A stretch of DNA of 64,000 bases from Okamejei kenojei (taxonomy: Eukaryota), in assembly GCA_035221665.1 (NCBI GenBank), contig CM069162.1, forward strand, positions 6,634,001-6,698,000, written 5' to 3'. The notes under the pieces are model-generated. The model had not been told where the DNA came from. It ran no database searches and was given only the letters and a program-made list of their open reading frames with translations. Position 1 is the stretch's first letter, and every line of letters starts with the position of its first letter. Shown here one piece after another: positions 5,921 to 42,470 of the stretch. A program made the position numbers and the translations under genes.

Positions 5921-6033
5921 GACCAGTAAGGGAGTCAGAGGTTATGGGACGACGGCAGGAGAATGGGGTCGGAGGGGAAAATAGGTCAAAATAGATTGGA
6001 TGGTGGAGCTGCCTCGAATGACCTAATTCTGCT

Positions 6034-6346
6034 GTTAAAGAAGGAAGTGCAGATGCTGGAAAATCGAGGGTAGACAAAATGCTGGAGAAACTCAGCGGGT
6101 GCAGCAGCATCTATGGAGCAATGGAGATAGGCAACATTTCAGGCCAAAACCCTTAGGGGTTACAGGGTTTTGGATTACAGAAATAGGCAACATTTCAGGC
6201 CAAAACCCTTAGGGGTTACAGGGTTTTGGATTACAGAAATAGGCAACGTTTCGGGCCGAAACCCTACGGGTTTCGGCCCGAAACGTTGCCTATTTCCTTC
6301 GCTCCATAGATGCCGCTGAGTTTCTCCAGCATTTTGCGTACCCTGC
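6034..6346. mobile_element. PLE-derived fold-back element (family B) with two 56-bp internal units, inserted in a CR1 tail
   Basis: Inverted arms; 13-bp TSD acctaattctgct at 6021-6033 and 6347-6359; internal units offset by 56 bp (6151, 6207). Confidence 0.8.
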
Positions 6347-6716
6347 ACCTAATTCTGCTCCTATGTCTTATGAAGCGTGGTGCAGCGGGCCGAGCTGCTG
6401 TCAGCTGCAGCGATGCGGGTTCGATCCCCGACCTCGGCTGCTGCCCGCGTGGAGTTTGCACGTCCGACATCGGCCTGGCGATTGCGGCATTGAGTCACCC
6501 AGCAGAGGTACGGGCCCTTCAGCTCCACGCTGGCCATCAAGAGTCCCGTGTCACGAATCCGCCAGGGCCTGCCTCCGCGCTGCGTCTCTAAACTCGGACC
6601 TAAGCTAAAACTTCAGACTCGTGTGAGCGGGTGATGGCTGGTCGCCGTGGACGCGGTGGGGCCTGTAGCTCTAAAACCATAACGAAACAAAAACGAACCA
6701 GACCGGCGAATGGTAC

Positions 6717-6748
6717 TATATATATATATATATATATACATATATATA
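6717..6748. repeat. (TA)n microsatellite
   Basis: Direct reading. Confidence 0.9.
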
Positions 6749-8062
6749 TCCCGGCTGTAAAATAAGATAAAAGCTATGATGATTTGCAAAACCAAGGAGA
6801 TGCTTTCACAATAGGTATTCCCATGCTTTAACTTACATTGTGCTGACCGGCATATGAAAGGAAGAATGTGCCACTCTCTGTGGAATATAATCAACTCTGG
6901 AGTTTACATAACCACTGCCTTCCTCCCCATCTCTCCCCACTTTATCATCATCTGCACGGCCATTGTTGTCAAGTTTCATGGCTGGTCTGACCTTTTTGCC
7001 GAGCAGCGCAACATTGTGTTGCTCTCCCCGTCCATCCCAACCCCTTTGGCATTTCCACGGAAACTGTCTGGTTAAGCCTTGCCCCGGCTTTTCTTTCCCG
7101 GTGTCACTTTCGTGTCTTTTAACATGGTTTTGCTTAAAAGTCCTTTAATCAATCACGGACGAGCCAGAAAATGGGCTTTGTCATGGTCGGATGGTGGGTC
7201 GTGCGACAATCACACGGCAGCGTGACAGCCCCTCAAAGGGAAAAAAGGAATATTTTTGGGGGAAATGGTCGGTTTCCATGGAGCTGCCACTTGTTCACAT
7301 CAGCAGCCACTCTCGAGCAGCGGCATGGGCCCAGCTTTCAAAAGACAGCGAAAAAAAACTCGGGGGCAGGAGGCAGAGACGGCCTCCAAAGGCAGCTGCC
7401 CTGGTATCTCTGCTGTCAGCTCTCGGTGAGAGCAAGAATGGGCGGCCATTTAAACAGCAAAGAGGTCCTGCTAGGTGGCTGTCAAAATATGCATAATCGG
7501 CAGTATTTAATAAATGTTCAATTTTTCATCCTGGCTTCACTATTTCAAAAGTTTCCACGAGAGGAACACACATCACTTGACAGAGCAGAACAGAGGAAAA
7601 CCATTCACTTATTGCTTCTGGTAGTATGTCCATTGTTTTCTAATGGTTAATTATAAGTGCTTGATGGTTCGGCTTGGCTCCCGGGCCAATAAGTTGCTAC
7701 ATGCAAAGCATTTTTAATAGGAGGAAAAAGATTTGGGATGGGGAGGGAGGGAGGGGGTTGGTTTGTATTTTATTGGGAAAATATTTTGATTCTCTCTGGA
7801 CAATTCCAAGATTGTGTGTTCCTTACCCCTCTGCAAAGGATTCTGAGGATGGGTTTTGCTGAGATGGAGATGTGATGTTGATGAGAATTGTCGCTTGCTT
7901 CTATTATAGAAACACGTAGACGATTCCGCCTGTAAATTTGTTTGCAGTATGCGAAATGAATTATGATTTTTATAAATAGGCTTGCAGGAAAGATTCAGCG
8001 ATTTGCGCGCCTCCTGTAGTCCGTGCCTCATTGGGCTGCTTTTCTTTGGAGTTTAAGAATGA

Positions 8063-8330
8063 GGTAGAGTTGCTGCCTCACAGCGCTAGAGTGACCACGG
8101 GTGCTGTCTGTACGGAGTTTGTACATTCCTTCTGTGACTGAGTGGGTTTTCTCTGGGTGCTCCGGTTTCCTCCCACACTAAGGGTTTGTAGGCTAATTGG
8201 CTTCGGAAAAATTGTAGATTATTCCTAGTGTGTGTGGGATAGCATTAGTGTACTGGCTGATTGCTGGTGAGCACGGACTCAGTGGGCCGAAGAGCCTGCT
8301 TCCCTGCTGTATCCCTGAAGTCTGAAGTCA
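8063..8330 (+). mobile_element. HE1-like V-SINE
   Basis: ggtagagttgctgcctcacagcgc head, V-domain, tail. Confidence 0.8.
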
Positions 8331-8749
8331 AGTGTAATTATTGATCCTATACTAGTTGCATTCTCCACAGAGGTATTGCAACTGATCAATAGGCTGGTGT
8401 AGGGGACCACAGTCACACGTGGGCTCCTGGTGTTAGCTCAGCACAGATCCAACATAGACAGAGTATGGCCACAGCATTAAAGTATCACGCCATCTCCTCT
8501 TCAGTCTGTAGCCCATCGAACCTGTGCATTGCCATGGGGACGAAGGTGGGTGGTCTGGAGAGGGGGGGAAGGGGAGGGAGGGGGAGGTGGAGGGAGGGAG
8601 GGGGAGCTTTGGCTTAAAACGAGTGAACAAATATGTTCGGCTAAAAGCTGCCATTGCATGGAGAGTGTGTTTTCAGTGTGGCTATGCCGTGCCAGATGAA
8701 GAGCTGTTGAGACTTATCCCACGGCCTTGGTGCTCACGGCTCAGCGGGG

Positions 8750-9063
8750 GGGCACGGTGGCGCAGCGATAGAGTCGCTGCCTTACAGCGCCAGAGACCCC
8801 GGTTCGATCCTGACTTCGCGTGTTGCCTGTACGGTGTTTGCACGTTCTCCCCGTGCCTGCGTGGGTTTCCTCCGGGCGCTCCGGTTTCCTCCCACACTCC
8901 AAAGACGTCCGGGTTTATAAGCTAATTGGCTTCAGTAAAACTTGAACATTATCCCTAGTGTGTGTAGGATAGTGTTAGTGTATGGGGGTGATGGCTGGTC
9001 GTCGCAGACTCGGTGGGCCGAAGGGACTCTTTCCGCGCTGTATCTCTCAAATCTAAAGTCTAA
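8750..9063 (+). mobile_element. HE1-like V-SINE, full length
   Basis: ggcacggtggcgcagcgatagag (A-box), ggttcgatcc (B-box), V-domain, CR1-like tail. Confidence 0.85.
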
Positions 9064-9191
9064 AGACTCCTCAAATACTCATCCAGATTCTTCTTAACAT
9101 CATTGAGGGCTTTCATCTCTGTCTCCCTCTCTCAGGTTGTGACCTCTAATCACTTGAACAGGAACAACTGTAAATTCTCCAACTGAGAAAT

Positions 9192-9396
9192 TTTGTTTAA
9201 GAGGGAACTGCAGATGCTGGAAAATCGAAGGTAGACAAAAATGCTGGTGAAACTCAGCGGGTGAGGCAGCATCTATGGAGCGAAGGAAATAGGCGACGTT
9301 TCGGGTCGAGACCCTTCTTCAGACCAAAACGTTGCCTATTTCCTTCGCTCCATAGATGCTGCCTCACCCGCTGAGTTTCTCCAGCATTTTTGTCCA
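9192..9396. mobile_element. PLE-derived fold-back element (family B) without internal units
   Basis: Inverted arms; 13-bp TSD ccaactgagaaat at 9179-9191 and 9397-9409. Confidence 0.8.
9292..9325 (-). ncRNA. Minimal type I hammerhead ribozyme motif (PLE-associated)
   Basis: Minus strand reads ggt-CUGAAGA-a-GGGUC-uc-GACCC-GAAAC-GUC-gcc: core boxes, stem II hairpin, GUC site, very short stems I and III. Confidence 0.55.
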
Positions 9397-10819
9397 CCAA
9401 CTGAGAAATGTTCCTCACTCTTGTTTAATTAACCAGATTTGCAGATGGGATCAGTTTATCTTGGCTCCATATCCTCCAGAGATTCTGTCTGACCTGCTGA
9501 GTTTCTCCAGCACTGTTTTTTTTTTAATAGATTTCTCAATACTGGAAGAATTAAGAAACATGAGGATAGTGCGAGAAAATGTGATTAAAGTGGAAAACCA
9601 AACATGATCTTGTTGTGTGGCAGAGCGAGCTAGAGACAGACCAGCACAAGCGTTGTGGGCTGAAGGGCCTGTTCCTGTGCTGTACTGTTCTATGTTCGAC
9701 ATGGTTCAATGTTCTAGCAACCCAAACAGCCCGCAAAACCAAGCCTGACGTTTTAATTTATTTCCAAACTGCACACAGAGTCAATGCACACTTGGGGTTT
9801 TTACCGATTTGGTACTTTTAGCGATAGTTGGCATTAAACTTCTGATGATTTTCCCTGCAGGAAGTTATTTGACATTCCTTGATATGATTAGGTCTCGCAG
9901 TTCTTACTAGACTTCATGTCAGTTTTGACTTAATGAAGTGGAACTGAGAAGGGAATTCAGTTCATTGCATTAGTCGCAAGTGGAGTCCCAGGCTGTTGGA
10001 AAACAGCAACGGTTTGGGACTGGGAAGTTACAATGAATGTCGTTATCATTCTGGTCAGCCTGTTTTTACACAAAATTAAACAAAGAACTAATTAGTGCTT
10101 CATGAATTAATAAATGCTCTGTTGCTCTGTAGGCTTTGGATTGCTAGATGGAAATAGCAAATAAATATGAAAACTGTAATAGGCAGGAAAATGAATTTTC
10201 AGCTCTTTGCTACTTATCCTTCACAGTGTCACCACTTTCAGTGCATTTAGCTTCTTTTAATCTTCACAGGATAACATCTCTCCATCAAGTCTACGTATCG
10301 GACTTAACCCTTTCAGGACAATGCCTGCTTTTGTACGCCGCTGTTTCCTTAAAATATGTGCAGTCAGATCTCATCAACAGAAACCCCTGTAATATGCAGA
10401 ATAACAAGCAATCATTTGTTTCCCTTTCTCACTGAGTGCGGACTCAAGAATAGGCTTGGGTGGCACGGCATTTGTTTTAATGAGTAATATGGAGTTCCGT
10501 TGAACCTGACTGTATATTAATGAGAACTGACTGAAATAAAGTTGGTAATATTTACATTTTTTAATTTGAATGGATTATCTCTAGTGTAAAAATGTTCTCA
10601 TGTTTTTGCCGCCTTATATAGACCAGAGATACATTCGAGTCGTGCCAGCACTGGGGGGGGTTTGAGGGTAAACATTTAATAATGAAATATTGTTTGTATA
10701 TCTTGTGTCTACTGTGCAGAAATAATATTGTTTTGGAACATTAGGATATTAATTGGAGTGATGCTTCTGTGCATCACCTGCTTTTTAATAACCGAGTCCC
10801 TTTACTATTGGCCTTTACC

Positions 10820-11010
10820 GCAACGAGGTTGGTGTGCAAGGACTGGGAAGTGTTGTGGCAGCTGCTCAAGGCTTTGGTGAGACCACCTTTGGCATGCAGT
10901 GTGCCATTTTGTTGTCCATACCTCAGGAAATCACATTCGAGCTGGTAAAACCGAAGGTTTACCGGATTGACTGCTCGGATGCAGCTGTTGTCACGTGCGG
11001 AGGGTTTGAG
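10820..11010 (+). mobile_element. Old degraded CR1 ORF2 fragment
   Basis: gctgctcaaggctttggtgagaccacc...caggaaa resembles the LYKALVRPHLEY region. Confidence 0.5.
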
Positions 11011-11016
11011 TGAGTT

Positions 11017-11260
11017 CAGTTTAGTTTAATTTAGTTTAATTTAAGCTAGTTTAGTTTAGTTTAGAGAGACAGCGTGGAAACAGGCCCTTCGGCCCACCGA
11101 TTCCACGCCGATCAGCGATCAACCGTTCACACTAGTTCTATCCTAAACACACACTGGGGCCAATTTACAGAAGCCAATTAAACCAACAAACCCACAAGTC
11201 TTCAGACAGCGCCTGTAGTCAGGATCGAACCCAGATCTCTGGCGCTGTACGGCAGCAACT
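11017..11260 (-). mobile_element. HE1-like V-SINE (internally deleted)
   Basis: (tttag)n tail, ggaaacaggcccttcggccc, head ggatcgaacccagatctctggcgctg. Confidence 0.75.
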
Positions 11261-11934
11261 GTAGAGGTCTGAAGATTGGGAGGTGACCTTGACTGAGAGG
11301 GTTTAGTGCAGCACTGCTGAGGCTGTTTCCCCTGTCTGGTCTCATAGTCGTACAGCAAGGAAACAGCCCATTCAGCCCATCGAGTCCACTGGTGACCATC
11401 AAGCACCCGCTTATGCTAGCCCTATGCTAATCCCATTTTATTCCCCCCCATATTCCTGACATCTCCCCCAGATCCTACCAGTCACCTACAATCTACAGTG
11501 GCCAATTAACTCGCCAACCCGCGCATCTTTAGAAGGTGGGAGGAAAACAGAGCAACAGGAGGAAACTAATGCAGTCAGTTGGCGGTGCTGGCTCGAAGGG
11601 CCGAATGGCCTCCTCCTGCATCTATTTTCTATTTTCTATGTTTCTATGAGATTGCCGGACTGCACACAAACAGTACCAAAGGCCAGGGTTGAACCTGGGT
11701 CACTGGAGATCTATAAGCTGTGCGAGCAGGTTGCCCTTAAAGTGACAGAGACAGTGTTGAGTTCTGGGTTCCGCACTTCAGTACAGAGAGCGCAGCGGCG
11801 ATGTGCCAACATGGGACCAGGAACGTATCTGGACAGGCAGGAAAAGTTGCCACCTTCCCTTTGGAGCAGAGTCATACAGCACCCAAACCGGCCCTTCGGC
11901 CCAACCTGCCCATGCTAACCCAGATAGTGTGGCA

Positions 11935-12207
11935 CAGTGGCACAGCGGTGGAGTTGCTGCCTTACAGGACCAGAGTCCCGGGTTCGATCCTGACTACGGG
12001 TGCTGTCTGTGGAGAGTTTGTACATTCTCCTCGGGTGCTCCGGTTTGCTCCCACATTCCATAAGGTTAGGAGGTGGAATGGCGTCTGTAAATTGTCCCTA
12101 GGGTGTGTAGGACAGAACTAGAGAACGGGCGATCGCTGGTCAGTGCGGACTAGGCGGGCTAAAGGTCCAGTTTCCACACTGCATCCCTGAACCAAACTAA
12201 ACTAAAC
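11935..12207 (+). mobile_element. HE1-like V-SINE
   Basis: tRNA head with ggttcgatcc, V-domain, (ctaaa)n tail. Confidence 0.8.
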
Positions 12208-12779
12208 CAATCCAACTTGAAGGCTAGCTCAACGAGCCACAGAGTCACCATCTGCAGTGAAACCATCCTTTAATCCTCTGTAACTCGTATACAGATCAAG
12301 ACACTGGCAGCCTGGTCCAAACAGCCAACGGAGATGTGTCACTCTGCCGTTATGGCCGGGCAATGGAAGTAAAACTGTAGCCAACCCATTTCTATCCTCA
12401 CTTGACACACATATTTGAAGGCCTGCATTTTTGTGGTGCCCAGCACATCCCTTTCAGGATATCCTTAAGCTCTTCACAACCAATAAAGCAGTCGATATTA
12501 AAATGCAGCAAATGTGACAACCAAGTCGCCCATAACAACTTCCCACACAGGACAAGGTGACCTTGGTCGAAGGTCAAATATATTGACCTGATCATGTACC
12601 AAAATAACATGGGATCTGTTACACCTGCCTGGGATGGCAGTGCCCCATTGGGATGGGAGCTCCTGCAATAGATCGTTAATGTAAGCCTCTGAGGCAGGTA
12701 CGTTAATAATGTTTATTAAAGCGGACAGCATCGTGGCACAGTGGTAGAGTTGCTGCCTGACAGCGCTTGTAGTCCTGCT

Positions 12780-12911
12780 TCAGTCTGGAGGTCATGACCC
12801 AAAACGTTACGCATCCTTTTTCTCCAGAGATGATGCCTGACCCGCTGAGTTATTCCAGCACTTTGTGTCTATCTTTGCTGTAATCCAGCATCTGCAGTTC
12901 CTTCCTACACA
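12780..12911 (+). mobile_element. PLE 3' terminal fragment
   Basis: ccagagatgatgcctgacccgctgagtt...cagcatctgcagttccttcctacaca terminus. Confidence 0.7.
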
Positions 12912-13853: not shown

Positions 13854-13857
13854 ACAT

Positions 13858-15298: not shown

Positions 15299-15339
15299 CC
15301 TTGTAGCCAGAGTGCAGCACACATAAACACAAAAGGACA

Positions 15340-20556: not shown

Positions 20557-21941
20557 TGGGCCTGTCCCACTCAGGCGATTGTTTCGGCGACTGTCATAGT
20601 CGCAGCAGGTCGCCGAAAAAACCGGCAACTGGACTAATGGGCCTGTCCCTCAGGCGATTTCTAGGCGACTGTTGGCGAATATGACATTGAAATTCACCGA
20701 AGTCAGCATGGCTGGCGACAGCCTACGTCAGCTGGCGACAACCTACTACATCCTGGCGACTGCCTGCATTAACCTGGCGACTGCCTACATTAACCTGGCG
20801 ACAGCCTACTACATCCTGGCGACTGCCTGCATTAACCTGGCGACTGCCTACATTAACCTGGCGACAGCCTACTACATCCTGCGACTGCCTACATTAACCT
20901 GGCGACTGCCCGAATTAACCTGGCGACTGCCCACATTAACCTGGCGACTGCCCGCATTAACCTGGCGACTGCCTACATTAACCTGGCGACTGCCCACATT
21001 AACCTGGCGACTGCCTACATTAACCTGGCGACTGCCCACATTAACCTGGCGACTGCCTACATTAACCTGGCGACTGCCTACATTAACCTGGCGACTGCCT
21101 ACATTAACCTGGCGACTGCCCATTAAATTAACCTGGCGACTGCCTACATTAACCTGGCGACTGCACATTAACCTGGCGACTGCCTACATTAACCTGGCGA
21201 CTGCCTGCATTAACCTGGCGACTGCCTGCATTAACCTGGCGACTGCCCACATTAACCTGGCGACTGCCTGCATTAACCTGGCGACTGCCTACATTAACCT
21301 GGCGACTGCCTGCATTAACCTGGCGACTGCCCGCATTAACCTGGCGACTGCCCACATTAACCTGGCGACTGCCTACATTAACCTGGCGACTGCACATTAA
21401 CCTGGCGACTGCCTACATTAACCTGGCGACTGCCCATTAACCTGGCGACTGCCTACATTAACCTGGCGACTGCCGCATTAACCTGGCGACTGCCCACATT
21501 AACCTGGCGACTGCCCACATTAACCTGGCGACTGCCCACATTAACCTGGCGACTGCCCACATTAACCTGGCGACTGCCCACATTAACCTGGCGACTGCCT
21601 GCATTAACCTGGCGACTGCCCACATTAACCTGGCGACTGCCCACATTAACCTGGCGACTGCCCACATTAACCTGGCGACTGCCCACATTAACCTGGCGAC
21701 TGCCTACATTAACCTGGCGACTGCCTACATTAACCTGGTGACAACATATGACAGCACCTACGTCAAGTTACGCTCATTAGACGTCAAACCCAAGGTCGCC
21801 ACGGTCACCAGAAAGACACTACGACTCTTTGGGCGACTGAGGAGACTATTTACGACCCTACAGGCGACACCCCGGCGACCATGTGGCAACCGCATAGTCT
21901 CCTGCAGTCGCCTAAAAAGTGGCCTAAGCAGCACAGACCTA
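20557..21941. mobile_element. PIF/Harbinger-type non-autonomous element inflated by a minisatellite, inserted in a V-SINE fragment
   Basis: Left TIR tgggcctgtcccact after TAA (20554-20556); degenerate right TIR (about 27/37 identity) followed by TCA; flanks rejoin to SINE ggcgctg-taa-ggcagcaact. Confidence 0.7.
20711..21745. repeat. 21-bp minisatellite, about 49 units, CCTGGCGACTGCC(T/C)(A/G)CATTAA
   Basis: Direct reading; explains the repetitive ORFs (INLATAY / TLTWRLP). Confidence 0.95.
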
Positions 21942-22984: not shown

Positions 22985-23278
22985 GGCGGCACGTTAGTAG
23001 AGCTGCTGCCTTGCAGCGCCTGAGACCCGGGTTGAATCCTGACCACTGGCGCTGTCTGTCTGCGCGGAGTTGCACGTTCTCCCCGTGACAAGCGGGGCTT
23101 TTCTCCGAGATCCTCGATTTCCGCACACACTCCAAAGACCTACAAATGTTGCAGGTTAATTGGCTTGGTGTAAATGTATGTAGGCTATTGTTAATGTGCA
23201 GAGATCGCTGGGTCAGTGCGGGCTCGATGGGCCAAAGGGCCTGTTTCCAGCCTGTATCTCGAAACGAACTAAACTAAA
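22985..23278 (+). mobile_element. HE1-like V-SINE
   Basis: Head, V-domain, tail. Confidence 0.8.
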
Positions 23279-23477
23279 TATTCTTAAATACTGAGTGTGA
23301 AACAACTGTCACAATCCGTGTTAAGGATACATTCCCGGATCCCCCCAGGGTGCCCGTGGACACGGGTACACCCTCTCTAATGCCAGCCGGCTGTGGACCT
23401 AACCCCGGTGGACCCCAGCGCTCCGTTGGTCACTGCAATCAGGTCTCAGGAGAGGAGCTCGTTCGTGGTTAATCGGT

Positions 23478-24065
23478 GGCTACAGTGGTGTAGCGGGTAG
23501 AGCCAGACACCCAGGTTCCATCTTGACCTCGGGTGCTGTCCATGTGGAGTTTGCACGATCTCCCTGTGATCGCGTGGGCTTCCTCCAGGCGCTCCGGTTT
23601 CCTCACACATCCCAAAGATGTGATAGTTTGCTAATTAATTGCCCCCCCCCCCTCCACCCCCCTTCCCCCCTTGTCAAATTGCCCCTAAATTCGAAGGAGG
23701 ATGAGAAAATGGGATAACGTAGAACTAGTGTTATGGGTAGACAAAAGTGCTGGAGAAACTCAGCGGGTGAGGCAGCATCTATGGAGCGAAGGAAATGGGC
23801 AACGTTTCGGGCCCGAAACCCCAAGGGATTACAGAGTTTGGGATTACAGAAATAGGCAACGTTTCGGGCCGAAACGTTGCCTATTTCCTTCGCTCCATAG
23901 ATGCTGCTGCACCCGTTGAGTTTCTCCAGCATTTTTGTCTACCTTCGATTCTCCAGCATCTGCAGTTCCTTCTTAAACAACTAGTGTGTTTGGTGATGGG
24001 TGGTCGGCGTGGACAGGCGGGGAGAATGACCTGTTGCCACGCTGTATTTTTTCAACTGAACTCGA
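23478..24065 (+). mobile_element. HE1-like V-SINE interrupted by a PLE fold-back
   Basis: V-domain at 23535-23615; tail resumes after 23987. Confidence 0.7.
23732..23978. mobile_element. PLE-derived fold-back element (family B) with one internal unit
   Basis: Inverted arms plus ~37-nt one-sided tail ending ttcttaaaca; 9-bp TSD aactagtgt at 23723-23731 and 23979-23987. Confidence 0.8.
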
Positions 24066-25836
24066 CTCTCAAAGCTCGTCTCTCCAAACCCCCTCCAGAC
24101 CAAGCCTCTGAAGCCATTGTCTTCCAGCAAAGAAACAGGCCCTTCGGCCCTTCACATCCACGCTAACACCTTTGCCCAATGACGCTAATGCCATGAGATC
24201 CACGCCCGCTGTAAATGGCCCATTTGTGACCACGCTGAGTGGATGATAGCCCGAAACAGACGCTTTCCACTGTACCCCAGTACAGTGACAATAAACTAAA
24301 CTGAACTAAATGAAACTATTATCCTTCTCTACCGTGTCTTTTTAAGTGTCTGTCTAAATATATTTTAAGTGTAACGGTGTCTCTGCCTTCTCCAAAGTGT
24401 TCCCTTTTTAAGTCCATCTACTGATCATCCCCAAATGTTTTCCTGCCTCCCCTTTCTCTCTCTCTCCCTCCCCCCCCCCCCCCCCTTTAAAAAGTTCCTT
24501 AATATCTACCTTTGATCAAGCTAATGGCCGCCTGCACGGATGTGTGTCCTGGTGTCACATGTTATTTGATTAAATTCCAATTAAGGGGTACAATGACTAA
24601 TACTATATAAGGGATGAACACTGATGTAACTTACGGCACCTCCAATAAATAAAGATATTGAAAAAATATATATTTTTAACAAATAAAAATAAAATAAATA
24701 AATTCCAACTGAGTGCCTCAGAACGGATGCCTTTGTTGCATTCGTTGATGTATACATGGGAGTTGGGAACTCTCTGACTTTATTCCAAATCTATTCCCAG
24801 TGTTTTTTCCCCTTTTTTTTCTTGCTGGACACAGTATTCCTCTGAATTTTGACACGAAAGACAAAGTGTTTGGATTTGCATCGCCAAGTTGGAAGCCCGC
24901 CGCTCCCACACAATCCACGTCCCCACCTTCCAAAGTTGACACGCGGTTGCCACTGCAGAGACCAGTGTGTTTTGTGTTCTCACTCCAGAGAGACTTTGAA
25001 TCCAGTTTCCCGCCCTGTGTGCACGCTTCGCCGTTTTAAAGCGCCATACTTTCTTAACGACTGTCTTTGCACAAGTTTCCCAAACATGTTTACCTAAACT
25101 TGGGAGTTCCAACAATCTCTGCCGAACGTAACCGGCTTACAAACCCATTCCAGAGGGAAGCAGGCATATAATCCCCCCCACCCAAAACATCCAAATTGAG
25201 TATCCCCCTCGGGTTTTAAAACACCGTCTTATTCCGCGTCGCTAAAAAAACCCGAGAGAGAGAGACATGTGTTTTTTTTTTCCCAAACTTGGTACAAAAA
25301 GTATTTCGTCCCCTCGAATACCTTTGCCGAATGTGAGCTTTCCCTCATCCAATATTGTTCCACTTGCGAGAACAAAAGTCCGCCTTTAAATTAGCCGTGA
25401 CAGTGTTGTGTAAATATTTATGATGTAACATCACAGACTCAATGCAGGTCTGTATCAATCTATCAGTGCCGTCCAAATAAGGACCCCCTTCCAGTGTCTG
25501 AGCCCGCGGGACGTTGAGACGCAAGCCATGTCCTCCCTCTTCAGTGTTTGTTTTTGCATTGACTCGGCGCAGTCCAACTGCGAAGCCTTTCTCCTCTCGC
25601 CTCGGCTTCCCCCCGCACTTCAAAGCCCGGCCGAGATATTGTTTCGGGGCCGTAGCCAATGGCCCTGAAAATCTTGAAACAGTGAAACGCGGTGTAGGTC
25701 AAATTAAAGGAGTCACGCTCGCACTTCCTGAGTGGCGAATGTGGGATGTTTCCTTTCTGCCTCCTCCACCTTGGTTACCGGGAATGTTTCTTTTTTTTTT
25801 TTTGAAAGACGTTGTTCCCTGGGTTTATTCATGAAG

Positions 25837-26055: not shown

Positions 26056-26385
26056 GGTAGACAAAAGTGCTGGAGAAATTCAGCGGGTGCGGCAGCATCT
26101 ATGGAGCGAAGGAAATAGGCAACGTTTCGGGCCGAAACCCGTAGGGTTTCGGGCCGAAACGTTGCCTATTTCTGTAATCCCAAACTCTGTAATCCCTTCG
26201 GGTTTCGGCCCGAAACGTTGCCTATTTCTGTAATCCCAAACTCTGTAATCCCTTCGGGTTTCGGCCCGAAACGTTGCCTATTTCTGTAATCCCAAACTCT
26301 GTCATCCCTTAGGGTTTCGCACTGAGATTCTCCAGCATTTTTCGTCTACCTTCGAATTTCCAGCATCTGCAGTTCCTTCTTAAAC
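26056..26385. mobile_element. PLE-derived fold-back element (family B) with three 56-bp internal units
   Basis: Units start at 26144, 26200, 26256 (next partial 26312); arms gtagacaaaagtgctggaga / tctccagcattttt; tail ends ttcttaaaca. Confidence 0.8.
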
Positions 26386-26452
26386 ACTCCCATTTCTCCC
26401 CTCTCCCATTAGGCAGGAGATAGAAAATGCTTCTGAAGAAGGGTCTCGACCC

Positions 26453-28420: not shown

Positions 28421-29572
28421 AAGCTTACTCCTGGTAGGCAGACGCTAACATCTGGAGCAACTCAGCGGGACAGGCAGCATCTCTGAAGAGAAGGAATGGG
28501 TGACGCTTCGGGCCGAGACCCTTCCTCAGACTGCTATGCTGCCAGCCACCTGACTGCTGGGTGAATAAAGGATCTTCAGGCCTGGCCAAGCAGACTATAG
28601 GGCTACTGGCATTGGGCGCAATGGACCAGTGGAGGGGGCAGACGGGATCACAGAAAGAACAAAATGCCAATCATTTGTAAAGCCAAACAGACCAACGGGT
28701 CGTGTAAGAACCCACGTTTGCACAGACCTTGCAGGAAATGTTTAAGACTGAACGACAGATGCTGGAAAATCGAAGGTACACACAAATGCTGGAGAAACTC
28801 AGCGGGTGAGGCAGCATCTACAGATCTACAGATCTACAGGTGCTGAGTTCCTGCAGCATTTTCTGCGTACCTTGCAGGGAATGTTTGGAGGTCTCCAGTG
28901 CCGAATCGCCCGCAGAACAGTGCCCTTTGACGACATCTGTTCCACTTGATTCAACAATTGTTCGGCAGTTGCACCTGTAACACTGCGCGGGATCGCACCC
29001 CTCCCCGTGTCCCTCTGCCCCACCATGTCACACCCAGAGTCTTGAGCCTGGGCACAAAGTGCTGGTGTAACCCGGCGAGTCAGGCAGCATCTCTGGAGAG
29101 AAAAAAAGGATGGGTGACGTTTCGGGTCTGAGTTTCTCCAGCCCTTTTTTTTACATTTGTGGGGTCATCCAGCGTGGAAACTGGCCCTTCGGTCCAATTT
29201 GCCCACAGCGACCAACATGTCCCATCTACACTAGCCCCACCTGCCTACGTTTGGCCCAGTGTGTATCTTCGGTATAAACCAGCATCTGCAGTTCCCCCCT
29301 ACACATTTTGTCTGCAGTTCCGTGTTTTTACCATAGACTGAACACTCTATCCTGGTGAACGACCCACACTTGCATTAACAATCAGTGCGTGAGGGATTCC
29401 ACGGAGGCAGTAGTTGCTTTCTCAAACTTCCATCATTGGGTGGCAAAGACTGGAGTTTAGCACCGGAGACCCCATCTCCCCCAGCCCAGCCCTTCCTGCC
29501 CTCCTTCCTCAGAGTTTTTACCGATCTATTGAGTTCCACATGTTGCCTGGAAAATAATTGAACGTGGAGAAG

Positions 29573-33222: not shown

Positions 33223-33275
33223 ACAAATCAAACTGAAGTTGGCCGGATCATCCATCACACCTCCATCACACATTG

Positions 33276-34232: not shown

Positions 34233-34707
34233 AAGAGATTAAGAAGGAACTGCAGATGCTGGAAAATCGAAGGTAGACATAAAAATGCTGGAGAAACTCA
34301 GCGGGTGCGGCAGCATCTACGGGTTTCGGCCCGAAACGTTGCCTATTTCTGTAATCCCACAGAGTTTCGCCCTGAAACGTTGCCTATTTCCCTCGCTCCA
34401 TAGATGCTGCCGCACCCGCTGAGTTTCTCCAGCATTTTTATGTCTAGCTTCCAGAGTCTGTAGGAAGGAACAGCAGATGCTGATTTAAACCGAAGGCAGA
34501 CACAAAAAAAAAAGCTGGAGTAACTCAACAGGACGGGCAGCATCTCCGTAGAGAAGGAATGGGTGACGTGTGGAGTCGAGACCCTTCTTCAGACTGGCTT
34601 GGGTCTAATCAGAATGAAGACAGGGCGTCTCGGCCCGAAACGTCACCCATCCCTTCTCTCCAGACTCCCTGTCCCGCTGAGTTACTCCAGCTTTTTGTGC
34701 CTATCCC
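34233..34707. mobile_element. Two adjacent PLE fold-backs (family B 34240-34447, family A 34460-34707)
   Basis: Target agattccagagtttgt at 34217-34232 and 34708-34723, near copy ttccagagtctgta at 34449-34462. Confidence 0.75.
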
Positions 34708-35019: not shown

Positions 35020-35255
35020 TTAACTTACAAACCCGTACACTAGCACCATCCTACAGGGACATCGTGGTGGTTTTTTTTTTAACGGAAGGCAAATAACCGA
35101 CTATTTGGGATGTTGGCGATGGTGGGAGGGGGGGGCCGGAGCACCCGGAGGAAGCCCTCGCGGTCAAGGGAAGAGAGTGCAAACTCCACACCGACAGCAG
35201 CCGAGGTCGGGATCGAACCCGGACCACAGGCGCTGTGAGGCAGCGGTTCTACCCC
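35020..35255 (-). mobile_element. HE1-like V-SINE
   Basis: V-domain and head on minus strand. Confidence 0.7.
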
Positions 35256-36004
35256 TGTGGACCAATCTGGTAACAACCTCCGCTCCGATCACCAGAGAGG
35301 CTGCCCGACCCGCTGGGGTATTCCGGCACTTTGTGAAGCCAATTTAAACCAGGACGCCAGCAGTTAAGGTCTCTGGGACTGGGAGGCTGGGGGGGGGGGG
35401 GGGGTAGTGAGGCTGTTAGGGGTCCTCTTACACACCCTGGGATCGCGCACAGTATCATTTCCTCAGCGGCACATTGAGAGCTGAGAAGAATGAGCCGCCT
35501 GTGGGAGGTGGCGGAGGGCACATTGGGTTCAGCCTTTATTGCTTTAATCTGCAGGCTGATGGCTCCCAGTGCACCGGCCTGAGCTCACAGCCATCACAGG
35601 TTAGTGGATTTATGAAACTGACCTGAAATTAGCGGGTCAGGCGTTCCAACACACCGTCGGCAGTGGGACTGAGAGGGGCTGGCGTTTAAACAGGCCCGTC
35701 TAATCCCATTCGCCATTTCAGTGGAGGGACCGTTCAGGAGAAGAGGATACAGAGGGAATCCGAGTCCATAACTCCCTGAAAGTGGCAACACATATAGTGT
35801 GGGATGTCAAAGATAGACACAAGATGCTGGAGTACATCAAGTGGGTCAGGCAGCATCTGTGGAGGAAAAGGACCCGTGACTTGTCGTGTTAGGACCCGAA
35901 ACATCACCAGGGTCCCGACCCCGAAACGTCACCCATTCTTTTTCTCCAAAGATGCTGCCTGACCTGCTGAGTTACTCCAGCCTTCCGTGTCTATATATAC
36001 TGCA

Positions 36005-36382
36005 GGCATCATCCTCCGCCTGTTCCACCGTTGAGGTCTTGGTTGGATTGCTCTTTGTCAGAGACCTCCCCCCTCGACCTTACCGCCATGGGCGGCCCTT
36101 CCAGGAGCACAGCTCCAGACGGCATCGCTCTCAGGATCTCAGGTCCACACAAGGTGACAATCCCCGGGGAAGACTTTAGTGGAGCATCACAACGGCTGGG
36201 AAGGCGGATGAAGGCTGCAGCAGGCAAGGGTCCCCGGTCGTCGTGGACTCCACGCCACTGGATCTTGACCCAGATCTGTCAAGAACCGTGTGGTGGCTGC
36301 CTGTGCACCAGTCTCCCCACGTTAAACACAGGCGTCCTCCATGAGAGGACAGTCATACTCGTTTAAAAGGACCGCCGATTAT
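36005..36382. mobile_element. RTE-clade (Expander/Rex3-like) derived non-autonomous element, 5' part apparently inverted
   Basis: Reverse complement of 36009-36165 reads gatcctgagagcgatgccgtctggagc..cctggaagggccgcccatggcggtaaggtcgagggggagg..gacaaag, like RTE 5' regions; plus-strand remainder ends ccgccgattatg. Confidence 0.5.
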
Positions 36383-36394
36383 GTATATTATAGG

Positions 36395-36590
36395 AAGCTT
36401 GCCTTCACCGGTTAGGGCATTGAGTTTAAGAGTCAGGAAGACATGATGCAGCTTTATAGGACATTGGTCAGGACATATTTGGAGTATGGCGAGCAGTTTT
36501 GGTCACCCCATTACAGGAAGGATGTGGAGGCTCTGGAAAGGGTGCAGAGGAGGTTTACCAGAATGATGCCTGGATTAGCGGGTTTTAAGA
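36395..36590 (+). mobile_element. CR1 ORF2 fragment
   Basis: MMQLYRTLVRTYLEYGEQFWSPHYRKDVEALERVQRRFTRMMPG. Confidence 0.8.
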
Positions 36591-36711
36591 GAATCAAGGT
36601 ATTTTCATTAGCGCACTCATTATTGGGCCACCCAAACATGTTTCTGTCATATTTGCTTTAGTTTTTCTCAAGTTCCCTATTAATTAGTGCAAGTGAAAGG
36701 CATCGTAGAAT

Positions 36712-37222
36712 CATAGAATCTTAGAATCATAGAAAATAGGTGCAGTAGGCCATTCGGCCCTTCGAGCCTGCACCGCCATTCAATATGATCATGGCTGATC
36801 ATCCAACTCAGTATCCTGTACCTGCCTTCTCTCCATACCCCCTGATCCCTTTAGCCACAAGGGCCACATCTAACTCCCTCTTAAATATAGCCAATGAACT
36901 GGCCTCAACTACCTTCTGTGGCAGAGAATTCCACAGACTCACCACTCTGTGTGAAAAATGATCTTCTCATCTCGGTCCTAAAAGACTTCCCCCTTATCCT
37001 TAAACTGTGACCCCTTGCTCTGGAGTTCCCCAACATCGGGAACAATCTTCCTGCATCTAGCCTGTCCAACCCCTTAAGAATTTTGTAAGTCTCTATAAGG
37101 TCCCCCCTCAATCTCCTAAATTCCAGCGAGTACAAGCCAAGTCTATGCAGTCTTTCTTCATATGGGAGTCATGCCATCCCAGGAATCAGTCTGGTGAACC
37201 TTCTCTGTACTCCCTCTATGGC
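36712..37222 (-). mobile_element. CR1 LINE 3' end (young)
   Basis: YSLEFRRLRGDLIETYKILKGLDRLDAGRLFPMLG; 3'UTR and tail. Confidence 0.85.
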
Positions 37223-37399
37223 AATCTCTATGGTATCGTAGAACTAGCAAGTTCCCGCTGAGTGGCCTGTTGGTCTCATTGGTGACGGCACCGGACTGTT
37301 TGAGGCAGTCCCACCAGAAGCTTCAAGAGTCAAGAGCGTTTTATTGTCATTGCTGTAACGGAACAATTAAATTCCAACTTGCAGCAGCGCAACAGACAT

Positions 37400-37580
37400 G
37401 CAAACACAACATGCTGGAGTAACGCAGCGGGTCAGTCAGCATCTCTAGAGGAAAGGAACAGGTGGTGTTTCGGGTTGGAACCCTTCTTCAGACTGGGAAG
37501 ATTTTCAGTCTGAAGAAGGGTTCCAACACGAAATATCGCCTATTCCATTTCTCCAGAGATTCTACCTGACCCGCTGAGAT
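37400..37580. mobile_element. PLE fold-back (family A)
   Basis: cccttcttcagactg...cagtctgaagaaggg inverted centre. Confidence 0.7.
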
Positions 37581-37854
37581 GTCCAGTAGGCAGAAGGACT
37601 ATACTTGGTTATCAAGTCGATTATTGTGTGCAGATACAAGATGAAGGGAATAACAGGCAGTGCAAGATAAAGTCCGATTAAAGATAGTCTGATGGTCTCC
37701 AATGAGGCAGATGGGAGGTCAGGACCACTCTAGATGTTCTCTGTGAGAAGGACATTGATAGTGGAGCGATGAAGGGAAGAGGAAACAAGACGTAGAGCCA
37801 ACCCTCGCAGGATCTCAAACTCCACGGTGAAATCCAAACAGGTGGCAAATGACG

Positions 37855-38052
37855 TGTAGAAAGGAACTGCAGATGCTGGTTTATACCGAAGATAGACACA
37901 AAGTACTGGAGTAGCTCAGCGGGTCTGGGATCATCTCTGGAGAAAAAAGATGAGTGACGTTTTGGCTTGTCTGGAGAAGGGTCCTGACGCGAAACTTCAC
38001 CCATCCTTCATCTCCAGAGAGGCTGCCTGACTCACTGAGTTACTCCAGCACT
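37855..38052. mobile_element. PLE fold-back (family A)
   Basis: Tail gtgtagaaaggaactgcagatgctgg plus inverted arms. Confidence 0.7.
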
Positions 38053-38352
38053 CTTGAATCTTTTAGTTATTGCTTTGTGATAAGCGATGGGGGCAGTGAC
38101 GGAAAGAGCTGAATGAAGACACAACAGCTGTGAGTCGGAAGGTTTTTATTTAGATTGGAATAATCAAATTCCACCTGCCACCTGGACTCGGGTGGTTACA
38201 GAAACAGCCCGACCACCAGGTACTAACACACTGAAGTCACCTCGGGGACAACTTTGTTTAAAGAGAGTCACTAGCTTCAACCAACTAGTGACTGTCACCT
38301 GTCTCCTCTTCTCCATCACATCTTCACCTGATCTTCAGCTGGTGATTTACAA

Positions 38353-38652
38353 CTTAGTTTAGTTTAGAGATACAGTGCGAGAACAGGCCCTTCGGCCCAT
38401 CTAGTCCACGCCGACCAGCGATCCCTGCATCTTAACACTACCCTACACACACTAGGGACAATTTACATTTATACCGGCCAATTAACCTGCAAACCTGTAT
38501 GACTTTGGAGTGTGGGAGGAAACTCCATGCGGGTCACGGGGAGAACGTACAAACTCCGTACAGACAGCACCCATAGTGAGGATCGAACCCTGGGTCTCTG
38601 GCCCTGAAAGCACTGTAACGCAGCAACTCTACCGCTGCGCCACCGTGCCGCC
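38353..38652 (-). mobile_element. HE1-like V-SINE, full length
   Basis: Head, V-domain, (tttag)n tail. Confidence 0.85.
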
Positions 38653-38806
38653 CTGATCTGACAGCTGATTGGCAGAATTCTCCTTCGCCACCTCCAGCTG
38701 GTTAGAGCTGCATAGTCTTCATTTACACTGACATCCACTTGGACCTGGAGATGGTTCACGTTGAGCAGTTTCCCTCGTTCAGGAAGGGGTGGGGGGAGGG
38801 TGCGGA

Positions 38807-38809
<3 letters not shown>

Positions 38810-38868
<59 letters not shown>
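38810..38868. repeat. (CA)n microsatellite
   Basis: Direct reading, about 29 units. Confidence 0.95.
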
Positions 38869-38873
<5 letters not shown>

Positions 38874-39496
38874 CAGACAGGAGGGAAGTTTCTGCGCTGT
38901 ATCTCTAAACTAAACTAAAGTAAACTAAAAACAAATGAACAACATTTAAAAGACATTGGGACGGGTACATGGATGGGAAGGGTTTTGAGGGATGAGTCCC
39001 AAGCGTGGGCAAGTGAGACTAGCTTAGATGGGGCATCTTGGTCGGATATGGGCGAGTTGGGGTGAAGGGCCAGCATCCACACTGCATGACTCTAAGACCA
39101 TTTAGTATTTCCAATGCACCTGTTATGTCGATCGTTGCTCTTGGTAGGAGCTTGCTGTGCTCGGATTGTGCTGTGCTCCCAGAGCTGTGACAGTACTGTC
39201 ATTAGCTGTAGAGGGCCGCGGGACATTTTGAAAGGAGTGGTGGAAAATATAAGCCTTTATTTCTGGGATGGAGCGGGATTTTCTGAAGGGGATGGAAAGC
39301 TAGTGCCGAAGCTGACTGCTGTCATTTTGCTACAGAGCAGAGTCAGAATATGAAATATTAAACGTTGAATTTTATCAACAATAAGCCAACAGTAGACGTT
39401 TCAAACCTAGTGTTAGTGTTTGAACAAGCATTTTTCCAACTTCACAGATTCATCAGCTTGGCTGGTTAACAGGTCCCTGGTCAGAGGGGTTGATAC

Positions 39497-39748
39497 TGAA
39501 GGGGAAGGTCAGGGGGGAAAGATTAAATAGGAACCTGAGGGGTAACATTTTCACACAAAGGGTGGAGGTTGTACGGAACAAGTTGCCGGAGGAGGTAGAT
39601 GAGGCTGGGACTATCACAATGTTTAAGAAACATTTATACAGGTACATGGATAGGACAAATTTGAAGGGATATGGACCAAACGCAGGCAGGTGGGACTAGT
39701 GCAGATGGTCGGCAAGGGCCTGCTTCCACTCTCCCTGACTCTATGACC
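39497..39748 (+). mobile_element. CR1 LINE 3' end
   Basis: KVRGERLNRNLRGNIFTQRVEVVRNKLPEEVDEAGTITMFKKHL. Confidence 0.8.
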
Positions 39749-40456
39749 CTTGGAGATTGCATGTGGGCAGAGCGGGACTGAGAGTGGAACGTAGAGGAGG
39801 GGACGAGCATTTAGTTTACTTTTCATTCGGCCGGAGAGTGTGGAGAGAAGGGAAGAATGAGGAGAGCGCAATCAGGAGCAATCTTGATTCAGCCACTTGG
39901 AGGAAGTGATCTGTGAGGGTTGTGGTGCGGCCGGATGCTGGCCGTAGGTGCTGTCTGCAAGAGGCCTTTATGGCCATGTGGCCAGACAGGGACTGTGAAA
40001 TGGCACCAAAACCTGGCGACTCTTCCATAATAGACTTAATGGGCTGTTTATGCATCATGTGCTTAACCGGGGCTGGGACTTATGTATTGCATTAATCTCA
40101 CATCGGAATGCAAAAATAAAGAATCTCACTGTACCTTGGAACACCTGATAATAAAGGAACCATTCAACCATTATTGATTCGGAATAGGTTCAGAAGCAGT
40201 GGCAGGGAAATAGCAACTTTTACAAAGGGAATGTTTTATTTGTGGATGATTGCTTTGCTATTAGATTGATTTGAATAGGAAAAGCTTGGAGGGATACGTG
40301 CAAAACATGGGCAAAATGAACTAGTGTCGATGGGGCATCTTGGTCGGTATGGGCGGATGGGCTGAAGGGCCTGTTTCCATGCTGTGTGACTCTATATTCA
40401 TAGAGATGGCAAGGAAATAGTTTGAACTATATCGATCTTCTGCTGAGCTTTTCTTT

Positions 40457-40757
40457 AGGGCGGCAGGTAGCGTCCCCGCCTTACAGCGCCAGAGACCCAG
40501 GGTTCGATCCTGACCGGGTGCCGTCTGTACGGACTTTGTACGGACTTCTCCCCGTGACCGCGTGGGTTTTCTCCGGGTGCTCCGGTTCCCTCCCACACTC
40601 CAAAGACATGCAGGTTTGTAGGTTAATTGGCTTGGTATTGTTGTAAATTGTCCCCAGTGTGCGTAGGATAGTGTAAATGAGTGGGGATCGTTGGTCGGAG
40701 TGCACTCGATGGGACAAAGGGCCTATTTCGGCACTGCATCTCTAAACTAAACTAAAC
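40457..40757 (+). mobile_element. HE1-like V-SINE
   Basis: B-box ggttcgatcc, V-domain, (ctaaa)n tail. Confidence 0.85.
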
Positions 40758-41159
40758 TCTCTGATGTTGAGGACCAGACAGGGAATGAGTTAGAATGGGT
40801 CACGGCTGGGAGGAGGGAGAAATTGGATTGGGTGCGGAATCAACGGAGGCAGGATGGAAGGATGAAGCCACAGGCCCACAGTGGGACAGCGAGAGTCTTC
40901 CTGAACATGACTGTGTCCTGTTGAAGATGTCACTCCATCACACGTATGTTGGCAGGTGGCAGAGGATCAGATGTGATCTCGCCGACTGACAACGCAGACT
41001 GGACGAGCCTCACGGTACATCAGTGGTCTATCAGTGGCATACCGCTCCTCTCAGGGTTACTTCCAGCAAACGTGGCCCGTCCAGGTGAATGAGGCATTGC
41101 CTTAAAGGCAGCAAACATGTCACAGTCAGGTTCAACGCGAATTGGAGGAACAGCATTTG

Positions 41160-41257
41160 CAGTGACTCCAACTCTCCCGCTCTCCCGCTTGAGAATTTGC
41201 TAAAATGGCCTTACAGCGGGCGATCTCCCGCCGAAAGCGGGAGAGTTGGAGTCACTG
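41160..41257. mobile_element. 98-bp MITE with perfect 22-bp TIRs and 6-bp TSD
   Basis: TIR cagtgactccaactctcccgct / agcgggagagttggagtcactg; catttg at 41154-41159 and 41258-41263. Confidence 0.8.
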
Positions 41258-41419
41258 CATTTGTACGGGAATTTGATTAGTACGGGTGTCAGGGGTAATG
41301 GGGAGAAGGCAGGAGAATGGGGTTAGGAGGGAGAGATAGATCAGCCATGATTGAATGGTGGAGTAGACTTGATGGGCCGAATGGCCCAATTCTGCTCCTA
41401 TCACTTGTGATCTTATGAG

Positions 41420-41790
41420 CACCACATATATATCGCTTGGGCAACTTACAACCCAGTGGTATGAATATTGATTTCTCAAAGTTCAAGTGAGCTCTCTCTC
41501 CGTTCCTCTCCCACCCTGGCTCTCCGACAAGTTTGATTCATTTTGCTGTTTGTATGCCTCGCTGTCACCTTCCCCTCAGTCAGCAACGGACCGGACCGTT
41601 GTCCATTTCCTTGATCAGCATCTCCTTTTCACACCTTACATGTTCTTTGTGCCTTTCCGTGTCTCTAGCTTCCCTCTCCCCCCGACACTCAGTCTAAAAA
41701 AAGGGTCTCGACCCGAAACGTCACCCATTCCTTCTATCCAGAGATGCTGCCTATCCCGCTGAGTTACTCCAGCATTTTGAGTCTGTCTTC
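41420..41790 (+). mobile_element. Penelope-like element 3' portion (GIY-YIG C-terminus, 3'UTR, degenerate HHR, terminus)
   Basis: Encodes HHIYRLGNLQPSGMNIDFSKFK-stop, typical PLE (Neptune-like) endonuclease C-terminus. Confidence 0.8.
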
Positions 41791-42470
41791 CCTTCCATTG
41801 ACTCCATTTACATTCCTTGCTGCCTCGGCAAGGCCAGCAGCATAATCAAGGATGTGCCTCGCCTTCCCCCTCACCCTGAGCAAGAGGTACAGAAGTGTGC
41901 AAAGGCACACCTCCGCATTCAGGGACAGTCGCTTCTCAGCTGTTATCAGGCGACTGAACCATCCTGTCACCAACTGGAGAGCGGTCCCGACCTACCATCT
42001 ACCTCATTGCAGACCTTTAATCAGCCTTTACTGGACTTTATCGTGCACCAAACGTTATCCCCTTTCTCCTATATCTGTACACAGTGGGCGACTGGATCGT
42101 AATTATGTTTAAGAAGGAACTGCAGATGCTGGAAAATTGAAGGTAGACAAAAATGCTGGAGAAACTCAGCGGGTGCAGCAGCATCTATGGAGCGAAGGAA
42201 ATAGGCAACGTTTCGGGCCGAAACCCGTAGGGTTTCGGCCCGAAACGTTGCCTATTTCTGTAATCCCAAACCCTGCAATCCCTTCGGGTTTCGGCCCGAA
42301 ACGTCGCCTATTTCCTCCATCAGCTCCACAGATGCTGCTGCACCCGCTGAGTTTCTCCAGCATTTTTGTCTACCTTCGATTGTGACGATATGCAGTCTTT
42401 CCACTGACAGGATAGCACGCAACAAAAAACGCTCTTTCGCGGTACCTCGGTGCACGTGACAAGAAACAAA
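41790..42470 (+). mobile_element. Rex1/Babar LINE 3' end interrupted by a PLE fold-back
   Basis: KRYRSVQRHTSAFRDSRFSAVIRRLNHP; 3'UTR resumes at about 42380. Confidence 0.75.
42106..42378. mobile_element. PLE-derived fold-back element (family B) with one internal unit
   Basis: Tail tgtttaagaaggaactgcag, centre gaaacccgtagggtttc, unit tgtaatcccaaaccctgcaatcccttc. Confidence 0.8.

Follow-up and report, generated by a model that had tools for sequence, protein, structure and literature searches.

Insertions of endonuclease-positive Penelope-like elements (PLEs) can carry an inverted pLTR and a one-sided tail of 30-40 bp (PMC3846280, PMC8557442). The hairpins described here from a skate resemble these elements in their head-to-head end repeats, one-sided tail and TSDs of about 9 bp or more, as well as in the palindromes at the inversion and in mobilisation in trans via the end repeats (PMC3846280, PMC8557442), which for the skate is a proposal. 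They differ in that the hairpin itself is heritable and ORF-less, with an inherited loop and spacer, and in that its lineages stay within chromosomal neighbourhoods; a heritable hairpin and such confinement are not among the features reported in the portions of PMC3846280 and PMC8557442 that deal with these insertions.

For the Anolis PLE Poseidon, in vitro work found two internal priming sites bracketing the tail, cutting of both strands and a predicted dimer, with hammerhead cleavage being dispensable for insertion (PMC11167929). Tail-bracketing internal priming, two-strand cuts and a dimer are also what we propose for the skate, a likeness at the level of PLEs that implies no shared clade, whereas Poseidon is autonomous and the assays described in PMC11167929 used linear RNA, with neither a hairpin template nor a test of insertion distance among them. 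Twin or dual priming of L1 is alike in that both ends of one cut are primed apart to give an inverted insertion within one TSD, but the L1 products described are one-off (PMC2837659), whereas the skate product founds lineages and its priming would be independent of poly(A).

Two other systems are relevant to short, clustered elements of this kind. Non-LTR retrozymes, with a reported range of 51-972 bp, require that at least two units in a row each contain a complete hammerhead (bioRxiv 10.64898/2026.07.22.740005). Like the skate elements, these retrozymes and the minimal PLE hammerheads are non-autonomous, derive from PLEs and have short tandem units that come from the hammerhead region (bioRxiv 10.64898/2026.07.22.740005, PMC4209133), but the skate units have no core and are placed inside inverted arms. 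Local hopping is treated, in the account of PMC12477314, as a property of cut-and-paste transposons; these too insert within tens of kb to a few Mb of the donor and only rarely jump further, yet the skate hairpins have the ends of PLE retrotransposition and accumulate as added copies.

Module elements in the window

The window, a 64-kb stretch of CM069162.1 from Okamejei kenojei, contains the following features.

6034..6346, minus strand: E12, module element with tail and arm, two 56-bp units, GTA-type fold loop at 6265-6267 and tail-less arm
6021..6033 (left) and 6347-6359 (right): TSD of E12, 13 bp
9192..9396: PLE fold-back of the parent type that lacks the module and has its hammerhead core on the minus strand; outside the module lineage
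9179-9191 and 9397-9409: TSD of the 9192 fold-back, 13 bp
23736..23978, minus strand: E13, module element with a single unit on the tail-less arm, spacer at 23825-23848
23723-23731 and 23979-23987: TSD of E13, 9 bp
23943..23979, plus strand: one-sided PLE tail of E13, 37 nt
26057..26386, plus strand: E14, module element with GTA fold loop, three units at 26144-26319 and tail at right; right arm deleted, clean TSD absent
26144..26199, plus strand: one 56-bp unit of E14
34240..34448, plus strand: E15, module element with shortened variant unit; 14-bp TSD with one mismatch
42107..42381, plus strand: E16, module element with GTA fold loop, one unit, spacer at 42259-42282 and tail at left

The preliminary description of the window had counted at least six fold-back insertions of one family. 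Fold-backs are indeed present at all six sites named, but the module is found in only five; the element at 9192, read as a member with zero copies, is an ordinary parent-type fold-back, since its junction is unique and the parent hammerhead core lies on its inverted side. The TSDs of 13, 13 and 9 bp at 6021/6347, 9179/9397 and 23723/23979 and the one-sided tails of about 37 nt were recovered as described, as was the tandem 56-bp unit (2.6 copies at 6127-6272 and 3.1 copies at 26144-26319). The same unit was said to occur in all module copies; it does recur, but at 34240 (E15) in a shortened variant, which is also present in E00, 400 kb distant. A search for TSDs of at least 9 bp at 26057 (E14) and 42107 (E16) found none.

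Structure, inheritance and PLE parentage of the module

The 56-bp unit is made up of a 29-nt hammerhead half (stem II, GAAACGUU and 3' stem I), a TGTAATCCC dimer and a 3-nt relic of the fold loop. The hammerhead half, recognised from the outset, holds up against shuffled sequence, with 15 matches to the 29-mer compared to 0 in 100 shuffles. A single unit is present at 22 of the 28 module loci, and duplicated units within E12 and within E17 have private mutations in common, both of which speak against the rolling copying that had been suggested. Because these private mutations are shared, the gain of units in E12 and E17 suggests, as far as the unit sequences can tell, that repeated 29-nt hammerhead halves slipped against one another.

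The tail is present in all 28 module elements (left in 20, right in 8), and two arms or arm remnants are kept in 26, with E08 and E10 running into a MITE. Which arm bears the module varies: in some copies it is the one with the tail, in others the one that lacks it. Two features of this arrangement count against the mechanism that we prefer below: simple hairpin annealing predicts some elements with the module on both arms, of which there are 0/28, and the fold loop flips relative to the unit among copies, which needs an extra switch.

The module elements are separate insertions. Eighteen of the 28 loci have their own TSD of 9-19 bp, compared to 3 of 756 mismatched flank pairs used as a control. 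Segmental duplication was considered and rejected, the flanks being unique save for a single pair of loci with a common flank (E24/E25) and, among ten close pairs, one whose left flanks match at 76%. Loops and spacers are nonetheless inherited: a sister family, with an extra base in one loop, occupies 94 loci on 24 contigs, and shared variants are nested (the GTA loop in three copies, the variant unit in two and a C39-only variant in two). A MITE fragment is fused to the module in three copies within 59 kb. In parent-arm controls, unlike module elements, the junctions are mostly unique.

Arm and tail are of PLE ancestry. Most of the 30 parent-arm controls continue into the hammerhead core and the PLE 3' end, and in parent copies the hammerhead half, arm and tail sit after the end of an ORF with a GIY-YIG motif (6 of the 30 control loci were translated). 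The parent GIY-YIG scores below the Pfam cut-off (E=4.5e-4, 20.9 bits against 22.6), a point against our preferred reading. That the unit might simply be part of the parent's end, the first objection anticipated, is ruled out, as the module is absent in 30/30 parent-arm controls. Judged by sequence, the module elements are hairpins with neither ORF nor ribozyme that descend from the end repeat of an endonuclease-bearing PLE: they have their ends in common with an RT/GIY-YIG PLE, inverted end repeats, a one-sided tail of 30-40 bp and TSDs of variable length, and the inherited junctions indicate that the ORF-less form is self-propagating. The original idea that a PLE gave rise to a MITE-looking hairpin which is non-autonomous and propagates itself is thus supported by a module found at 28 loci with inherited junctions, and the PLE-type ends would imply an RNA intermediate.

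Regional confinement and added copies

Searching 2.76 Gb with the 56-bp module gave 28 loci, at unrelated flanks as had been claimed, 24 of which lie in C32 6.27-9.33 Mb, in a cluster that surrounds CASZ1, and 4 in C39 12.4-13.4 Mb. Matches to the module pattern are distributed in the same way (27/31 in C32 6.27-9.33 Mb, 4/31 on C39), and 34/36 matches to a second pattern are likewise confined. The parent arm has 2281 exact matches genome-wide and the parent tail, used as a control, 12,109; among the matches listed, both are spread along C1 and C2. Two sister markers place 2/94 and 2/92 elements in the module regions. Three other private markers are regional (55/56 on C26, 34/43 on C27, and 43/46 in two patches on C38 and C32), which with the module makes four confined markers, their families each keeping to a few Mb on one or two chromosomes; one further private marker was found in a single element only and is hence uninformative.

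Related copies also lie close together on a finer scale. In the TTCC-loop family, 9 gaps are of at most 10 kb compared to 1.4 expected (3 compared to 4.3 for the parent tail control), and neighbours have rare 11-mers in common (84 vs 17, p=1e-4). The CTTCA-unit family has few extra close pairs, 3 compared to 2.0 expected at 10 kb, and this small excess counts against the preferred reading.

Of 32 fold-backs, 20 fall in 300 of 1054 kb (p=6e-5), an excess of about four-fold in a peak that was picked after the data were seen, which also weighs against the preferred reading. Background classes in the peak follow length: module-free fold-backs 4/14, linear copies 7/23 and old copies 26/95. The module copies are therefore added to an unchanged background, and a general insertion hot spot is ruled out because linear and old copies stay at background level.

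Explanations for the local copies

The clustering is probably the result of self-propagating, non-autonomous hairpins, whose nuclear RNA is copied nearby by PLE protein acting in trans and inserted close to its source. Read-through or intronic transcription would supply an arm-plus-tail RNA, and a dimer of the PLE reverse transcriptase/GIY-YIG protein would cut both strands of nearby DNA. Both priming sites, one at the tail end and one at the arm end, would be internal to the RNA, so that neither a free 3' end nor RNA export would be required. The two cDNAs could then anneal to each other through the repeated 29-nt hammerhead half and so be joined; a joint of this kind would transmit loop and spacer, place the tail on either side and allow units to be gained or lost by register slip; one cDNA may often come from another PLE RNA, giving mosaic arms, and rare long jumps would found new colonies. 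A more specific version is quite possible, if somewhat short of probable: ribozyme-less hairpins would spread by cis-retrotransposition, the PLE protein copying RNA tethered at its own locus and inserting it adjacent, and each neighbourhood would breed an endemic lineage that records how far a transcription site or chromatin domain reaches in the germ line.

Local hopping by a retroelement, if true, would mean that PLEs are able to use nuclear RNA near its source, and it bears on how PLEs keep introns and form inverted repeats with a one-sided tail. Hairpins of ~250 bp would serve the existing in vitro PLE system as a minimal cis substrate, and with the private markers a single genome would suffice to measure insertion distance, template switching and two-template priming. 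With regional lineages, moreover, neither selection nor target preference need be invoked for repeats to become denser around a developmental gene such as CASZ1.

It is unlikely that completion was instead templated by DNA, with any PLE RNA starting the insertion and the cDNA ends invading nearby hairpin DNA to copy loop and spacer; its corollary, that the marker spreads locally and the RNA does not, is doubtful to the same degree. The arms in the module lineage include all three parent haplotypes in a mix like that of the parent pool (9, 8, 7 of 30), a mosaic that suits DNA-templated completion and, being unexpected in a clonal lineage, counts against the preferred reading. Microhomology marks the junctions of two chimeras, E08 and E26, which also fits, and flips of loop against unit would be easily accounted for; E26, with a parent-type arm and a module arm inside one 14-bp TSD, speaks for the preferred reading as well. 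However, no excess of insertions is predicted unless neighbours rescue them, whereas fold-backs in the peak are in four-fold excess, and distal arm variants are common to neighbours (arm states 13 vs 8.8, p=0.03), with four states shared by one C26 pair.

Master loci, that is, one or a few transcribed sources per region with a cis insertion bias and no serial hopping, are improbable. Relatedness declines only weakly with distance within the cluster (rho -0.16 to 0.005, p 0.03-0.50), which favours such loci and speaks against the preferred reading, and 17/24 tails in C32 point along the CASZ1 strand (p=0.06). The nested shared variants and secondary colonies nevertheless imply several sources, and local insertion would be needed all the same.

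Ectopic gene conversion, moving the module among pre-existing fold-backs, we hold to be very improbable. Gene conversion depends on distance, and mosaic arms and a tail on either side would be expected from it. It is disfavoured because the module copies come on top of an unchanged background, module-free fold-backs being undepleted in the peak and total density four-fold higher. The interior is moreover not younger than the tails, divergence of interior and ends being about equal (2.1, 2.5, 2.4%), and the tail side is uneven (20 vs 8, p=0.036).

A MITE moved by a cut-and-paste transposase, a class with known local hopping, would explain the hairpin shape, small size, TSDs and local clustering, but is scarcely credible, and is already largely refuted because TSD length varies (9-19 bp, where a MITE has a fixed length) and the tail switches side, even within one sublineage; in place of fixed symmetric terminal inverted repeats, the ends are asymmetric and consist of PLE tail and arm ends. 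The retrozyme-like nature first proposed, with self-cleaving tandem units amplified via circular RNA, is the least credible of all: tandem units do come from the PLE hammerhead region and 56 bp is within the reported range, but the hammerhead core CUGANGA, looked for in all module units, is absent, no complete type I hammerhead is found in at least two consecutive units, most loci have a single unit, and the units always lie inside arms and tail.

An Rfam search returned no hammerhead or other family at gathering score, with weak microRNA-like hairpin matches below threshold, and a partial Pfam screen of 70 candidate exons (4144 frames scored) in the 500 kb upstream of CASZ1 named no gene. Among contigs of four DNA runs over 23001-24600 of the window, none bridges the E13 site and none gives an empty site; one relative's contig starts 22 bases inside the E13 tail, too short to count. 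The TTAGGG in the unit looks telomere-like, but this reading was abandoned, as the motif is produced where the two strands of the parent meet at the fold.

Anatomy and ancestry of the fold-back elements

The stretches fetched around all module matches yielded 28 module loci. Their elements run from an inverted arm through an inverted hammerhead half (H, 29 nt) to the fold, and from there through (H, spacer)n and a further H to the other arm; 20 have their tail on the left, the other eight on the right. The 56-bp module, which contains H and spacer, is present as one unit in 22 elements, two in five and three in one; none of the 28 carries modules on both arms. All six fold-backs claimed for the window in the preliminary description (6034, 9192, 23732, 26056, 34240 and 42106) were found in the sequence, together with their tails, the 56-bp unit and three TSDs. 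The insertion at 9192, counted there as a family member, is without module and of parent type, and the fold-back at 34240 has a shortened unit. One element folds into a near-perfect hairpin (z = -21), as expected from its inverted arms. One further element was seen in the window:

28738-28870: mini fold-back bounded by apparent TSDs, made up of tail, arm and part of an inverted arm, with a short palindromic micro-repeat where it folds; a similar micro-repeat was seen in one pattern search

The parent of these arms and tails is an endonuclease-bearing Penelope-like element (PLE), in whose copies H, the arm and the tail come after a CUGAAGA core, a pyrimidine tract and the end of an ORF containing a GIY-YIG motif. 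The ORF end was read by translating 6 of 30 control loci, and its GIY-YIG match falls under the Pfam cut-off (E=4.5e-4). PLEs with inverted end repeats and a one-sided tail are known (PMC8557442, PMC3846280), and the module elements share both features with them. Had the unit simply belonged to the PLE end, as the preliminary description allowed, it should accompany parent arms; the module is in 0 of 30 parent-arm controls, the junctions of which are mostly unique. The module elements are non-autonomous PLE derivatives. The retrozyme-like identity proposed for them was rejected, since CUGANGA is absent from every unit at the 28 loci, and a MITE identity was rejected as well.

The bases linking spacer to H reproduce the junction at which both parental strands meet in a fold and differ from the parent's upstream sequence, which makes it most likely that the module arose on a template already hairpin-shaped. 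Private mutations are common to both units of E12, and likewise of E17, which indicates that unit number changes via slippage between H copies, while copying or later in the DNA. Hairpins with about 6-10 tandem copies of 25-34-bp hammerhead-half units were also seen at C19 47.50-47.52 Mb (L212, L214) and C38 16.18 Mb (L238), a possible path from PLE ends to minisatellites.

Regional confinement of separate insertions

Genome-wide, the module pattern gave 31 matches, 27 on C32, the contig of the window, at 6.27-9.33 Mb and four on C39 at 12.38-13.40 Mb. A second module pattern placed 34 of 36 matches in the same regions; as pattern controls, the parent arm gave 2281 exact matches and the tail 12,109. 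As many as 19 of the 28 module loci lie within 612 kb. TSDs of 9-19 bp surround 18 of the 28, compared to 3 of 756 mismatched pairs, and the flanks are unique with the exception of one pair; the module copies are therefore separate insertions. The excepted pair, E24 and E25 (L029, L035; C39 12.38-12.40 Mb), 17 kb apart, has one flank in common inside an older PLE tail, which could be due either to flank transduction or to repeated targeting of PLE tails.

To tell new insertion from gene conversion, copies were also counted over 1.054 Mb of contiguous sequence. Fold-backs with and without module number 16 and 4 in a 300-kb peak picked after the fact, and 2 and 10 in the remaining 754 kb; linear copies number 7 and 16, old copies 26 and 69. 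Only module copies are over-represented in this after-the-fact peak (20 of 32 fold-backs, p=6e-5; other copy classes, p 0.8-1.0). Outside CpG sites, H has diverged by 2.1%, the arms by 2.5%, the tails by 2.4% and the spacer by 4.9%, so the interior is no younger than the ends and the family does not stem from a very recent burst.

Probable copying from nearby RNA, possibly from neighbouring DNA

We consider cis-retrotransposition from nearby RNA the likeliest cause of the regional confinement, a reading of moderate confidence. A nuclear transcript of any kind through a hairpin would supply arm and tail; at a nearby cut, two cDNAs primed on opposite strands would anneal at H, and the annealed product would retain loop and spacer, could bear the tail on either side and could slip in unit number. 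For an anole PLE, PMC11167929 reports that reverse transcription begins within the RNA at two sites bracketing the tail, that both DNA strands are cut, that a dimer is predicted and that hammerhead cleavage is dispensable. PLEs furthermore keep introns, and sequence is mobilised in trans via their end repeats (PMC8557442, PMC3846280).

In E26 a single TSD encloses an arm of parent type fused to a module arm. In E08 and E10 the module is linked, at an identical base, to a fragment of an abundant MITE that often follows TA, and E06, 14 and 59 kb away, contains part of that junction within its own TSD as a third, internal instance (L013, L014, L024; C32 6.548-6.607 Mb). The structures of E26 and E06 fit two templates and local sources.

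The main rival is that the interior was copied from neighbouring DNA. All three parent haplotypes are present in the arms of module elements, and isolation by distance within the cluster is weak. Loops also flip relative to units, and neither this nor the lack of two-arm modules is explained by the simple model of copying from RNA. These results count against that model and keep the DNA-copied interior as its main rival. Open full-text literature searches turned up no paper on hairpin PLE derivatives that are locally confined or propagate themselves; two papers, PMC12477314 among them, treat local hopping as a cut-and-paste trait.

Sister families and genomic setting

A sister family, with units of 34 bp, gave 342 matches, the exact ones patchy and on smaller chromosomes, and its fold loop, which has an extra base, is repeated exactly at 94 loci spread over 24 contigs. 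Gaps of <=10 kb in this extra-base family number 9 against 1.4 expected within its patches; the counts are 3 against 2.0 for the 34-bp-unit set and, among the parent controls, 3 against 4.3 for the tail and 3 against 0.9 for the arm (p=0.05). Of the 20 copies in ten close pairs, 12 are flanked by a TSD and 10 have their neighbour as best match; rare 11-mers common to neighbours number 84 vs 17 (p=1e-4).

Markers derived from close pairs were then searched genome-wide, the counts being matches, some tandem in one element, with the few seed copies included throughout. The first placed 55 of 56 on C26 at 1.8-7.5 Mb and another 34 of 43 on C27 at 2.7-9.9 Mb, while the third placed 26 of 46 on C38 and 17 on C32 at 30.4-31.4 Mb, a second colony that was unpredicted. 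Four private markers are regionally confined. The hairpin families avoid the largest contigs, C1-C7 (1 of 92 elements there in one family, 2 of 94 in another), and are patchy and often near chromosome ends, which parent arms are not.

The window (G000:C32:6,634,001-6,698,000, in an assembly of 2.76 Gb) is situated 76-140 kb upstream of the first CASZ1 coding exon mapped. The best protein match of CASZ1 is from a skate, at 90%, so the host is itself a skate or closely related to one:

C32 6,773,713-6,881,090, plus strand: CASZ1 coding exons (L133-L144)

Upstream of these exons, at 46-506 kb, are 18 module copies; one more is in the last mapped intron, and tail direction agrees with the CASZ1 strand in 17 of 24 C32 tails (p=0.06). 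Two unrelated features were seen:

Window 20752-21742: minisatellite, 21-bp period, 47 copies, 92% matches
L098:7482-9563, a fetched stretch: open frame of 694 codons from a non-LTR retrotransposon; its reverse transcriptase domain matches Pfam RVT_1 (E=8e-22)
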